Below are positions 31,736-51,659 of a stretch of DNA of 64,000 nucleotides, piece after piece (the first letter of the stretch is position 1; each line of letters opens with the position of its first letter). The notes below the pieces were generated by a model. The model saw nothing but the letters and a program-made list of their open reading frames with translations, did no database searches and was not told the DNA's origin. The position numbers were made by a program, and so were the translations under genes. The DNA is from Botryllus schlosseri. Lineage: Eukaryota. The stretch is from assembly GCA_051294905.1 (NCBI GenBank), contig CM119371.1, positions 5,892,001-5,956,000 on the forward strand, in the 5' to 3' direction.

Positions 31736-31770
31736 AGTCACGAGTCAATCCACATTTCTGATACGCCGAG

Positions 31771-32568
31771 AGTAGTGTAGTAGATCGCTCGTGGTGTGCG
31801 CTTTTTTGCATGGGGTAATATAGGTGCGGTCGCACATCGTATGGAAAACTCGTGGTGGCACATCGTACTTTTGGACCCCCCCTCTCGGTCGCACATCGTA
31901 ATGTGTTCTTATGGGTGCGCTCGCACGTCGTACTTTCGGGTATAGGCATCTGTCGCATATCGTATTGAAAACTCGTGTTGGCACATCGTACTTTTAGGTA
32001 TAGACATCTGTCGCACGTCGTACTTTCGCATGTCGTACTTTCGCGTATAGGCAGTAGTGGTGATTCGCCATGTGTTCTTATGGATGCGTCGGCATATCGT
32101 ACTTTCGGGTATAGGGTATCTATCGTGCGGTGGCTTATGGTTGCGTTGACATGTCGTACTTCGTGTTGAATATGTATCAAGTAAATAGTCATGTGAATGA
32201 ACCTTTGTTAATTATTGTGTCTTGAGGTCGCACGGTAACCCTTTTCAGCATAGGGATCGGTCGCAAGCGGCTCTTATGTCTTATCGCGGAGGTGGCATAC
32301 GGCTATTGCGTCTTATGGTGGGGGTGGCAAGCGGCTGTTGTGTCTTGTGGTCGCAGATCTCTGGTGATTCGCTGAATGAACCTTTGTTAATGTGTATATC
32401 GTAAATTATTATATATGATGTCATAGTTCAGTCGTGACAAACGACCGATCGTGTTCTAAGTCTTTCCTCGCTATTGATTCCTACGTAACCTGAATAGTAC
32501 TTTCAGATCGGATTATTCGCACCTTCCATACCGCTGTTTCACACCTACAGAATAGTCTGCTGTTCACA
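31771..32568 (+). repeat. Left terminal inverted repeat, including a 179-bp segment absent from the right TIR
   Basis: Reverse complement of 49414-50033 apart from the extra block at ~32213-32391. Confidence 0.95.
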
Positions 32569-32886
32569 ACCACAACAAGAATCACAAGTATACACATTTA
32601 CACATTCGTTGAATTTATTACTCTGAAATCAAACTCTTCACAAAAGCACGCACAATCGTATCATTAACTTTTTTATCATCACCAAAATTATTCAAGTATT
32701 CCTTGACTGAAAATCCTTGAGCTCTTTTTATCAAAAATGCAATAGCATGATCTCCACACACATCGGAAGTTTTACTCTGTAACTGTTTCCCAGTCACGGA
32801 AAATTCATCCGGATCCAGGAATTCGATTATCTGAGGTTTTAGCGGTCCGAAACCGAGCGAATCACGAAAATGAGTATCCTCATCTC

Positions 32887-49275: not shown

Positions 49276-49413
49276 TTTGCGTATTTGTATACCACAATAC
49301 AATATTTCATTTCGTGTAAAATGATTGACCTATGCGATTCGACTACTGGGTTAGCGCGGTGTTGTTCTACTACTCGAGGTGTGAATATTGTGCTATCGCA
49401 GTGAAGTCGCGAC

Positions 49414-50033
49414 TGTGAACAGCAGACTATTCTGTAGGTGCGAAACAGTGGTACGGAAGGTGCGAATAATCTGATCTGAAAGTACTATTCAGGTTACGTA
49501 GGAATCAATAGCGAGGAAAGACTTAGAACACGATCGGTCATTTGTCATGTCTGAACTATGACATCATATATAATAATTTACGATATACACATTAACAAAG
49601 GTTCATTCACATGACTATTTACTTGATACATATTCAACACGAAGTACGACATGTCAACGCAACCATAAGCCACCGCACGATAGATACCCTATACCCGAAA
49701 GTACGATATGCCGACGCATCCATAAGAACACATGGCGAATCACCACTACTGCCTATACGCGAAAGTACGACATGCGAAAGTACGACGTACGACAGATGTC
49801 TATACCTAAAAGTACGATGTGCCAACACGAGTTTTCAATACGATATGCGACAGATGCCTATACCCGAAAGTACGACGTGCGAGCGCACCCATAAGAACAC
49901 ATTACGATGTGCGACCGAGAGGGGGGGGTCCAAAAGTACGATGTGCCACCACGAGTTTTCCATACGATGTGCGACCGCACCTATATTACCCCATGCAAAA
50001 AAGCGCACACCACGAGCGATCTACTACACTACT
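49414..50033 (-). repeat. Right terminal inverted repeat, 620 bp
   Basis: Reverse complement of the left TIR; ends ...CTACTACACTACT. Confidence 0.95.
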
Positions 50034-51659
50034 GCCGAGTCAAGTCAAGTCAAGTCATTTTAGCAAAGTGACTCAAGTCAAGTTAAGTCATACGCAAAAA
50101 GTGACTCGAGTCTGACTCGAGCCATCCCAACACTGCCTCACGCGTATAGGTGAAGTCATATCATTCACGCTCAAATAGGGGTGGAAAAAAGTATATCACC
50201 TTTCTGAAGGTGTATTATATTCTCCCTCCCTCGACCATAGGTGGACACAATATTTCCTCCCCAATTGCACCCTAAAATCCTCCTTCATTTTTTACAGTGC
50301 ACTTACAGACAAAATGGTCATCTTCAGGCAGGTACGGCTCCGCATAAGGTATATTTCGAGTCCCTCTGGTTCTATATTTGGAAACCTGATATTTGGCAAA
50401 CATTAAAAGCTGACAAGAAAAAAATGGAAGCAGTGACAGACTATGTTTCAGCATGGACTAAAACCATATATATTGAACCAGAAATTTGTTTACTTTAAAG
50501 ACTGTTCAGTGTTCATTAATATACCGCTGTTACGCAGCAAAGTATGCCATAACAATTATAGTCACACGTTCCACTAGGGCTGGGCAAAATCGAGTACCTG
50601 AGTGAATCGATTCTGAATCACGTAAAATGATTCGAGTCGAGTCGAGTAATCGAGTATCACTCATTATGACGTCATAGCAGAATATAATTTGTCAAAGTTC
50701 AAATATGTACCTTTTAAGCGACCACATAGAATATAATGCCTGTTATTCATCATATTAACGATACTTTGCTATTTTTTTCGACTATACCGATTTCATTGCA
50801 CTTGGTGACAATATTGTGGGATGATCATGACCTCGGAAATGTGCTATTTCCGGTAACGTTGGTAGCTTTGTACTTCATGTTTCGCATGCTACGATACGGC
50901 CAATCAAGGTTTCAAGGCTTCAACAGTGAAATTAGCATAAAATCGTTGATAAACTCCTCGTTGATAAATCAACTTTCAGTGGCGAGGAGCGTATAATTTC
51001 AGTACTCGAATCATTGTGCCCAGCCCTACTTTCCACGTAGTTTAGTTCAAACCTTGCTATTGTCACATTACAAATTCCATGGTCAGTGCCTCTGATTGTT
51101 ATGTGATACGTTTCCGAATCCATAGTTGGTAAAGCAAGTCACTCAGTGTTCATGATTAATATGAGTTATCATTGCCCATAAAGGATTAACTAGCATGTCA
51201 TAAAAATAAAACCGAAAGTTGAAACTTGAAGGTTTGTAGCACCAAATTATTTGTTTACTGAAAGGGCACAGACACCTGCCCTAGGGAGAGCTAATTTCAT
51301 AACTTGAAGCGTTGCCTTTAAAAAGAGTTTGAAATGTTTCATGTTTAACATCGTTTCGAATTATGGAGGCAAATAAACGTTATTTTCCCGCGGGTGGATC
51401 ATATATGTTCCATGCACAGTTTTTTACAAACACGCTTCAATCACTTAACGACATCTTGCGTTGTAGTGGTCATAAACGGTTACAGTGATCGTCTATAAAT
51501 AGCTATTATCAACACGCATACGACGAGCTATATATAACCCGTTGCCTTATCACATAACTCCTTCAAAATGCAGATTGTTTACAGAAAAACGTTTCCTGCA
51601 AAGTACAATCTGTAGCTCAGAACGCCTGAATGAACGCTAATCATATAATCCACCTTAGC

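Follow-up and report, generated by a model that had tools for sequence, protein, structure and literature searches.

This report concerns a mobile element of the Polinton/Maverick kind in a window of 64,000 nucleotides (nt) of the Botryllus schlosseri genome, the window being the whole stretch of DNA that was analysed. The element extends from position 31771 to position 50033 and comprises 18,263 bp; the coordinates 31765..50039 given in a first-pass annotation of the same DNA correspond to the element plus both copies of its target site duplication (TSD). As read from the sequence, the termini are AGTAGT... and ...ACTACT. The left junction consists of ...GATAC, the TSD GCCGAG and then AGTAGTGTAGTAGATCG..., and the right junction of ...CGATCTACTACACTACT followed by GCCGAG and TCAAG.... 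The 6-bp TSD (unstranded, 31765..31770 on the left and 50034..50039 on the right) is exact on both sides, and random hexamers match by chance with a frequency of 1/4096. The terminal inverted repeats (TIRs) are about 620 bp long: the left TIR (31771..32568, plus strand) begins with AGTAGTGTAGTAG and the right TIR (49414..50033, minus strand) terminates with CTACTACACTACT. Alignment of the two arms revealed one substitution and one one-base indel in about 424 aligned positions of the outer TIR, followed by 196 inner positions that are 96% alike. An extra piece of 179 bp (32194-32372) is confined to the left arm and missing from the right arm. It is flanked by the direct repeat TGAATGAACCTTTGTTAAT and composed of TIR-like sub-repeat motifs.

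The target site was also found in uninterrupted form. The left-flank letters ...CATTTCTGATAC join position 50034 directly in the RNA runs X24 (42 reads) and X22 (95 reads), and the same join is present in 39 contigs of the DNA run X1. Hence, a site with a single GCCGAG and no insertion exists. Loose ends nearby carry slightly different letters, which indicates that the flank is itself a repeat, and the uninterrupted-site reads may therefore derive from paralogues of this repeat instead of an empty allele; either origin fits the reads. The element is surrounded (31400-31770 and 50034-50160) by a short repeat that is common and transcribed and contains many GACTCGAG/GTCAAGTC motifs, and several sequence variants of this repeat in uninterrupted form are present in the reads. 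The exact ends and the 6-bp TSD that had been claimed from the letters alone were thus borne out by both the junction sequences and the uninterrupted site, and the search for sister copies by TIR that had been proposed alongside gave at least 68 genome matches.

Fifteen of the 17 listed gene features are located on the minus strand. The genes for replication, integration and packaging were assigned to different degrees of certainty. The protein-primed family-B DNA polymerase (PolB; 42712..46305, minus strand) is an open frame of 1197 amino acids (aa) that matches Pfam family PF03175 with an E-value of 5.5e-8 and 32.6 bits against a cut-off of 25.8, and the motifs Exo I-III and Pol A/B/C could be read in its translation. 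The OTU family had no Pfam match in PolB; a Cys motif, DNLCAFRC, was noted by eye alone. The retrovirus-type integrase with a C-terminal chromodomain (39711..40781, minus strand) was recognized by Pfam in both parts (rve, PF00665, E 2.7e-16; chromodomain, E 4.7e-9). The packaging-type ATPase (41490..42098, minus strand) was assigned from its Walker A (GPSRSGKT) and Walker B (IIVDD) motifs, read in the translation, and from the sub-threshold Pfam matches Pox_A32 (E 0.0067, 16.4 bits against a cut-off of 22.8) and AAA_14 (E 7.8e-5). Among the genes described as open in the first-pass annotation, PolB and the integrase were accordingly confirmed above the Pfam cut-off and the capsid and penton genes are open and supported by fold, as described below; for the ATPase the open frame and the Walker motifs stand, and the family match stays below threshold. 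Pfam at threshold gave nothing for the major capsid protein (MCP), the pentons, the protease, the small open reading frames (ORFs), the paralogue of the PolB N-terminal domain and the single-stranded DNA-binding protein (SSB)-like gene.

Upstream of PolB, a standalone paralogue of the PolB N-terminal domain (47025..47513, minus strand) encodes 162 aa from its ATG. It resembles the first approximately 110 and the last approximately 20 residues of the N-terminus of the window PolB, and the underlying duplication extends into the upstream non-coding part, the two copies being 72% alike. Elsewhere in the genome an alternative architecture occurs, in which the N-terminal domain is fused within PolB frames of approximately 1295-1349 aa. 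The standalone domain, with 203-276 aa, is present in about 20 listed copies, at least 12 of which have, after it, a PolB frame of approximately 1110-1242 aa with a shortened domain. By comparison of these copies, the standalone domain together with PolB is an inherited two-gene arrangement. The separate terminal protein (TP) candidate of the first-pass annotation is thus a real and recurrent standalone gene, and its role as TP is putative.

The virion module contains the MCP gene, three penton genes and a small basic protein. The MCP gene (35919..37190, minus strand) is open and encodes 423 aa. It has no Pfam family; 114 relatives were found in a large protein collection, the best at 48% identity, and some sources label them 'F54H12.2-like'. 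An AlphaFold (AF2) model calculated from an alignment of 61 relatives reached a predicted local distance difference test score (pLDDT) of 93.3 and a predicted template modeling score of 0.90. Comparison of the model with the PDB by Foldseek returned the double-jelly-roll capsid proteins of iridovirus, PBCV-1, Sputnik and mavirus with E-values of 2.6e-16 to 1e-12 and template modeling (TM) scores of 0.54-0.68, and the best match in BFVD was a protein of Maverick type from a bracovirus record (31% identity, E 1.4e-31). The model shows 35919-37190 to encode a predicted double-jelly-roll capsid protein.

Three tandem ORFs on the minus strand were assigned as penton paralogues, namely paralogue 1 (38624..39454, 276 aa), paralogue 2 (37956..38627, 223 aa, predicted single jelly roll) and paralogue 3 (37564..37959, 131 aa, jelly-roll core only). 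They share an N-terminal strand region and a C-terminal block of approximately 80 residues. A word-indexed homologue search with a penton paralogue returned its own cluster only, and relatives were found by profile search: a profile of the three paralogues matched 4918 proteins at E<=0.001 among 1.84 billion representatives, mostly of approximately 250 aa. The AF2 model of 37956-38627 (pLDDT 86.2) was matched best by Foldseek to the mavirus penton (E 3.3e-8, prob 1.0, TM 0.40-0.44), followed by the Sputnik penton and adenovirus penton bases (8qbx, E 6.3e-4; 6b1t_M). The penton gene annotated earlier was therefore confirmed by fold, as three paralogues rather than one. Duplicate pentons have been reported for only a few adintoviruses (PMC11071296). 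Next to the MCP gene, 37196..37567 on the minus strand encodes a small Gly-rich amphipathic protein of 123 aa with a Lys/Arg-rich tail and no Pfam family. By eye it is like the pX/melittin-like class, which is named for adintoviruses in the sections of PMC8502044 used here, and it is possibly a core or membrane-active virion protein; the protease-processed core proteins of the first-pass annotation are putative. Two further minus-strand ORFs, of 131 aa (40717..41112) and of 115 aa (41109..41456), are conserved, the latter being basic and with a hydrophobic C-terminus.

Lesions of the window copy were determined by comparison with a sister, one coding element of 14,319 bp with the TSD CACACA (loci L039/L040). 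In the sister, the protease is one uninterrupted frame with His and Gln...Cys motifs. In the window, it is split into a C-terminal part with the Gln...Cys motif region (32618..32886, minus strand) and an N-terminal part with the His motif GSHW (35740..35982, minus strand) by an insertion of 2,853 bp (32887..35739, unstranded, boundaries set against sister locus L039). The insert is flanked by an 8-bp TSD, CTCATCTC, at 32879-32886 and 35740-35747, and its ends, CAGGCGCGTATCCAG and CAGTGGCGTATCCAG, are inverted and form imperfect TIRs of approximately 15 bp starting with CAG. Its 50-bp terminus is present at at least 30 genome loci, and its inner part has only a few diverged genome copies with 70-73% identity. 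Inside lies an ORF of 219 aa (33719-34378, minus strand) with a CCHC zinc knuckle at its end; this ORF has no family match, and no hAT transposase was recognized in the insert by Pfam. The label hAT-like is taken from the length of the TSD alone, and as a member of that superfamily the insert would be non-autonomous. The identity of the interrupted gene as an adenain-like (clan CE) cysteine protease is weakly indicated by sequence: for the intact protease of the sister, the best PDB match was the African swine fever virus S273R protease (E 0.31, over the His motif), and Pfam gave no match even at E 10.

The second lesion affects the SSB-like gene (48621..49275, plus strand), which consists of two OB-like halves. 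The reading frame is broken at, or immediately beside, the seven consecutive C of 48955-48961. The gene of the sister has a different break approximately 85 bases upstream and is continuous across the break of the window, from which it follows that the gene was originally one frame. At position 48960 some reads carry another letter; no read-based correction of the run length was listed. The protease insertion and the SSB frameshift had been named as the clear lesions, and the comparison with the sister confirmed both and disclosed no other clear one. The window copy is no longer fully self-sufficient, with the protease split and the SSB-like frame broken, and its remaining genes are open.

For the SSB-like gene, a language-model search of the ESM Atlas gave a first match of 0.96 with 188 shared features and a recognition value of 2371, and the families named there (PF01336, PF16900, PF21473 and PF17244) belong to OB-fold, RPA and Ssb-like clusters; this result is a lead and not a fold comparison. 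Neither the two halves nor a natural uninterrupted copy had a Pfam or PDB sequence match to OB-fold families, and the halves have no significant similarity to each other (E 0.029 over 17 aa). Among the matches of this gene listed in the genome, 147 of 150 are without stop, and the open frames are mostly 214-218 aa long. The earlier assignment as SSB thus agrees with the OB-fold-like language-model features and finds no counterpart in Pfam or PDB sequences. No paper on an OB-fold SSB in Polintons was among those listed by the literature searches.

The second plus-strand gene is an accessory ORF of 105 codons up to a Trp codon followed by GT (48148..48462; the full reading frame is 48148-48477). 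It has 124 genome matches, 114 of them without stop, which include a subfamily at 50-54% identity. In four of four sequences examined the ORF ends with Trp and GT, and similarity stops there; this Trp-GT(A/T) end (window 48460-48470 and loci L040, L066 and L067) is kept across two subfamilies that are approximately 52% identical and may represent a conserved splice donor. As judged by its conservation, the ORF is a real gene. A Bcl-2-like protein had been proposed here, and this identity found no support in any homology test. Pfam gave no match to the Bcl-2 domain PF00452 at E<=10, a genome search with PF00452 listed 150 full-length matches elsewhere and none at this ORF, and phmmer/hmmsearch against the PDB found no Bcl-2 structure. 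The ESM Atlas contained no related cluster (best 0.78, recognition 1502), a word-indexed search found no homologues, and comparison by hhalign with five true Bcl-2 proteins encoded in this genome gave probabilities of 0.3% (2 queries) and 0.7% (4 queries). A likeness of the motif GVDWNGV to BH1, as well as the Trp-GT end, was noted by eye only. The spliced leaders that had been suggested likewise found no support: in the parts read of two raw RNA runs (approximately 6% and approximately 3%), no RNA joint was among those listed for 35740-50300, where 12 joints were left unlisted. Loose read ends occur at 36376 (49 reads) and 42260 (20 reads), without a partner on this stretch.

The relatives of the element in its own genome (495 Mb) were assessed by an MCP search, in which 303 candidates were found, 99 were scored and 100 matches were listed, so that the counts are lower bounds. 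Full-length copies without stop account for 86 of the 100 listed matches, 77 of them at 96-100% identity and 9 in a subfamily at 78-79%; the remaining matches are full-length with stops (6) or partial (8). The genome holds well over a hundred close, mostly open-framed relatives of the element. The sisters are neither degraded nor without accessory genes. Against the coding sister, the ratio of nonsynonymous to synonymous substitution rates (dN/dS) was 0.03-0.27 in 11 of the 13 stretches tested: MCP 0.03, second half of the SSB-like gene 0.05, ATPase 0.06, integrase 0.08, 115-aa ORF 0.09, pentons 0.16-0.24 (0.16 for paralogue 1 and 0.23 for paralogue 3), PolB N-terminal paralogue 0.18, 131-aa ORF 0.22 and plus-strand accessory ORF 0.27. 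The two higher values were obtained for the first 80 codons of the SSB-like gene (0.50) and for an 80-aa ORF (47781..48023, minus strand; 0.83), which contains a stop in the sister and is probably not a gene. Since synonymous changes far outnumber replacements, the two lineages diverged while the proteins were in use.

By sequence comparison the copies of the element present themselves as mosaics. Protein identity between sister and window is 93-99% for the virion proteins, the integrase and the ATPase, 72-75% for PolB and 68-96% for the right-end genes. In the DNA run, the summed word depth is approximately 10-fold lower over the 5' part of the window PolB than over the virion module. Little transcription was visible in the raw RNA reads, which lie at low level on some 3' parts; in a search of sequencing runs, no RNA run was listed as a holder. 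RNA peaks were found at 35740-36711, 37198-37683, 42058-42543 and 48862-49347, and poly(A) sites are suggested at about 42.1-42.5 kb, 35.7-36.7 kb and 49.3 kb. The strongest of them, 42058-42543, reaches approximately 16x in both raw RNA runs and lies in the ORF-free gap between PolB and ATPase, with the loose end at 42260 inside; this peak may mark where the PolB transcript ends (3' end) or reflect expression of an unrelated repeat. Reads of the single-cell run have an orientation that would fit the sense strand of the genes concerned, given what is known of 3' single-cell libraries. The letters of the RNA reads differ from those of the window, which indicates that other copies are the ones expressed.

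A genome search with the outer TIR (40 of 1927 candidates scored) led to a further class of elements. The matches contain at least 16 inverted pairs spaced 7.8-55 kb apart, of which 10 were examined. All ten elements have AGTAGT ends and 6-bp TSDs; one is the coding relative, eight are palindromes, near-perfect and non-coding, and one is rearranged. The eight palindromes (loci L031-L038 and L041-L050, e.g. L031:308 to L032:4209) have arms of up to approximately 6.8 kb that flank a central piece of 0.3-1 kb and are 99.4-99.98% identical within a copy; comparison between copies gives an arm similarity of only 78-95%. What the palindromes share with the Polinton is limited to the outer 350-440 bp, and in the one arm scanned for coding capacity the longest open frame was no longer than in shuffled sequence. 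Measured from the element ends, seven elements have lengths of 13.1-15.5 kb and two of 18.6-19.5 kb.

Two other groups of palindromes carry genes. The SSB-like gene occurs in approximately 38 outward-facing inverted pairs, approximately 11-12 kb apart, among the 150 listed matches. One such palindrome was resolved (L063-L065): it is 14,394 bp long, has the TSD CACGTC and arms 98.5% alike over 2 kb, and contains an open SSB-like frame of 214 codons in each arm, adjoining each end; inward of this gene it is no longer like the autonomous element. The Bcl-2 profile gave 150 listed full-length matches among 290 candidates, 149 of them without stop and with readable BH3, BH1 and BH2 motifs. They form approximately 59 inward-facing inverted pairs 3-20 kb apart, and in four of these pairs the 3.3-kb surroundings are inverted copies with 99.0-99.9% identity. 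The resolved Bcl-2 palindrome (L051-L062) is 15,402 bp long, with AGTAGT ends (AGTAGTGTATGTAGG...) and the TSD CACATA; in the 5.9 kb of its arm that were seen, further open frames do not exceed 127 codons and no further gene was recognized. With these Bcl-2 genes, an anti-apoptotic gene has been amplified on mobile DNA to a very large extent. The window element without its insert and the duplicated 8 bp (32879-35739) has a length of 15,402 bp, exactly that of the resolved Bcl-2 palindrome. The agreement is probably a coincidence, but a common constraint on length would be in line with it.

With their AGTAGT ends, 6-bp TSDs and common TIR, the palindromes are linked to the Polinton integrase and, presumably, to Polinton replication. 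That their arms are nearly identical could be due either to replication, in which one arm would serve as template for the other, or to gene conversion between the arms in the host. A tentative and rather doubtful proposal is that of a living virus-satellite community to which the window copy would belong and in which autonomous Polintons (>100 copies) would replicate, pack and integrate palindromic satellites of 13-15.5 kb. The arms would be homogenized because every round of protein-primed strand-displacement replication would run through a snap-back hairpin, one arm being copied from the other, and the length would be set by the capsid. The satellites, with the same AGTAGT ends and 6-bp TSDs, would carry nothing, two SSB-like genes or two true Bcl-2 genes, with arms 98.5-99.98% identical within a copy and copies differing by 5-22%. 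Hairpin or inverted-dimer defective genomes occur in adenovirus and linear plasmids, and the satellites, if the proposal were true, would be a eukaryotic counterpart of these, fixed in the germ line. No paper on palindromic Polinton derivatives was among those listed by the literature searches.

The element is very probably a young integrated copy of a Polinton/Maverick (Alpha-adintovirus-like), slightly broken, that belongs to a family multiplying very recently under protein selection. The earlier inference of a young insertion from a virion-competent family agrees with this in so far as the family keeps a complete virion-type gene set, with open copies 96-99% identical and under purifying selection. 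According to the known biology of such families, PolB would initiate DNA synthesis from a protein primer at the repeated AGT triplets of the ends and then slide back, the OB-fold protein would coat the displaced strand, the ATPase would pack the genome into an icosahedral shell, the protease would mature the shell and the integrase would insert the linear genome; sibling copies with open frames could supply the missing protease and SSB functions in trans. Several observations weigh against this interpretation. Neither a virion nor a free linear genome nor a terminal protein was seen in the data, in which the DNA runs were contigs, and a scan of IMG/VR with the MCP alignment found no free viral relatives. 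RNA depth is approximately zero over most bins in the portions read of both raw RNA runs. Protease and ATPase fall below recognition at family thresholds, and one coding sister alone was examined base by base. Both breaks in the SSB-like gene lie in homopolymer-like runs, where an assembly error is possible. TIR identity is a poor clock, with the inner TIR 96% alike and the TIRs of the sister 95%, and dating by TIR divergence was rejected as unreliable.

The missing viral relatives of the capsid gene, the very low RNA depth and the fact that all copies seen are integrated with TSDs would also suit a purely intragenomic self-synthesizing transposon, which keeps capsid, penton, ATPase and protease for an intracellular step and from which no particles leave the cell. 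This is unlikely in view of the strong purifying selection on MCP and pentons, the complete morphogenetic gene set and the clustering of the non-autonomous relatives at 13-15.5 kb, which suggests a length constraint. As for the window copy itself, the position of the frame break in the seven-C run and the open state of all other ORFs would be in line with a copy that is still autonomous, the break being a homopolymer assembly error and the protease dispensable or supplied otherwise. However, the insertion with its own 8-bp TSD separates the His from the Cys motif of the protease, and the other letter seen in some reads at 48960 came with no correction of the run length, which makes continued autonomy very improbable. 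The same two lesions might be expected of an old, dead copy in which some frames have stayed open by chance, but such a history is already contradicted by the MCP copies, the TIR and the dN/dS values: the outer TIR differs by one substitution in approximately 424 positions, 13 ORFs are open and the MCP has 76 further full-length open copies at 96-99% identity, so that we regard it as scarcely credible. Finally, an assembly artefact, or exogenous viral DNA misjoined to the host, had no observation in its favour and is negligible as an explanation given the exact 6-bp TSD, the uninterrupted site in independent runs and the 6-bp TSDs in 12 of 12 further elements with examined ends.

Among known systems, the closest resemblance is to vertebrate Polintons/Mavericks and to the Alpha Adintoviridae. 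In the sections consulted of Barreat and Katzourakis 2021 (PMC8097293), intact vertebrate Mavericks are described with an (AGT)2//(ACT)2 motif, 6-bp TSDs and lengths of 12.7-24.6 kb. The window element has the end motif, the TSD length, TIRs of hundreds of bp and the size range in common with them, and likewise protein-primed PolB, integrase, major and minor capsid proteins, an accessory region and, as candidates, an ATPase and a protease. It differs from the vertebrate elements, as far as these sections describe them, by core genes that are nearly all on one strand with accessory genes on the opposite strand at one end, by three penton paralogues, by a separate gene for the PolB N-terminal domain and by an SSB-like gene; moreover, at least 86 open capsid genes are found here versus at most 38 intact copies per vertebrate genome. 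With the Alpha Adintoviridae, as presented in parts of Starrett et al. 2021 (PMC8502044), it shares a PF03175-type PolB, an rve integrase, hexon- and penton-like proteins and an accessory region that lies upstream of PolB; a putative FtsK-type ATPase, a putative adenain and candidates for the small virion proteins, membrane-active or basic, would be further common features. Unlike in these viruses, no PLA2X or gasdermin-like gene was recognized in the Pfam scans, the putative OTU domain was seen by eye alone, and the window element is an integrated copy, no free genome having been seen.

Capsid structures of the virophages mavirus and Sputnik (6g41/6g42, 6g44 and 3j26) are the best or near-best fold matches of the penton and MCP models, and mavirus also has an rve integrase and a protein-primed PolB. 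Sequence identity to the virophage proteins is only approximately 10%, however, the hosts of virophages are protists with giant viruses, and nothing in the present data points to a helper virus. With adenovirus, the element shares a protein-primed PolB with reiterated end triplets, the penton-base fold and the hexon-type double jelly roll. Unlike the element, adenovirus is not known to have an integrase; its DNA-binding protein is not known as an OB-fold protein, and its preterminal protein has no known relationship in sequence. The reiterated terminal triplets and the jumping back of adenovirus replication with its protein-primed PolB are treated in the consulted sections of PMC8097293. A parallel with adenovirus E1B, E2 and late functions had been drawn in the first-pass annotation; the E1B-19K parallel is not supported for the window accessory ORF, and most of the adenovirus-like accessory inventory is unproven. 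Bcl2/IAP anti-apoptotic homologues and adenovirus-like virion proteins are already described for adintoviruses in the part of PMC8502044 used here, and the adenovirus parallel is therefore not new. In PMC6431247, BCL-2 is mentioned for planarian retrotransposons only.

The kind of element is known, and its family looks unusually young and active. Most endogenous Polinton copies in well-studied genomes are dead, and to our knowledge particles of animal Polintons have never been seen. With its open capsid genes, of which at least 86 were listed and which reach 99% identity, clear purifying selection, detectable transcripts and dependent elements, the B. schlosseri family would be a good system for direct tests of whether Polintons form virions, how their ends replicate and what the accessory genes do, namely those for the OB-fold-like protein and the separate PolB N-terminal domain and the conserved accessory ORF. 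The window copy as such is ordinary and defective; its worth is that of a reference whose boundaries are precisely known, with an exact TSD and with two clean lesions that can be dated. The interest beyond that of an ordinary endogenous copy is due to the state of the family and to the palindromic dependants with the same kind of ends. Outside the element, a stretch of 124 bp in the window (24493-24610) is 77% identical to the region of the protease C-terminal part at 32624-32745 and may, on this similarity, be a fragment of another Polinton.

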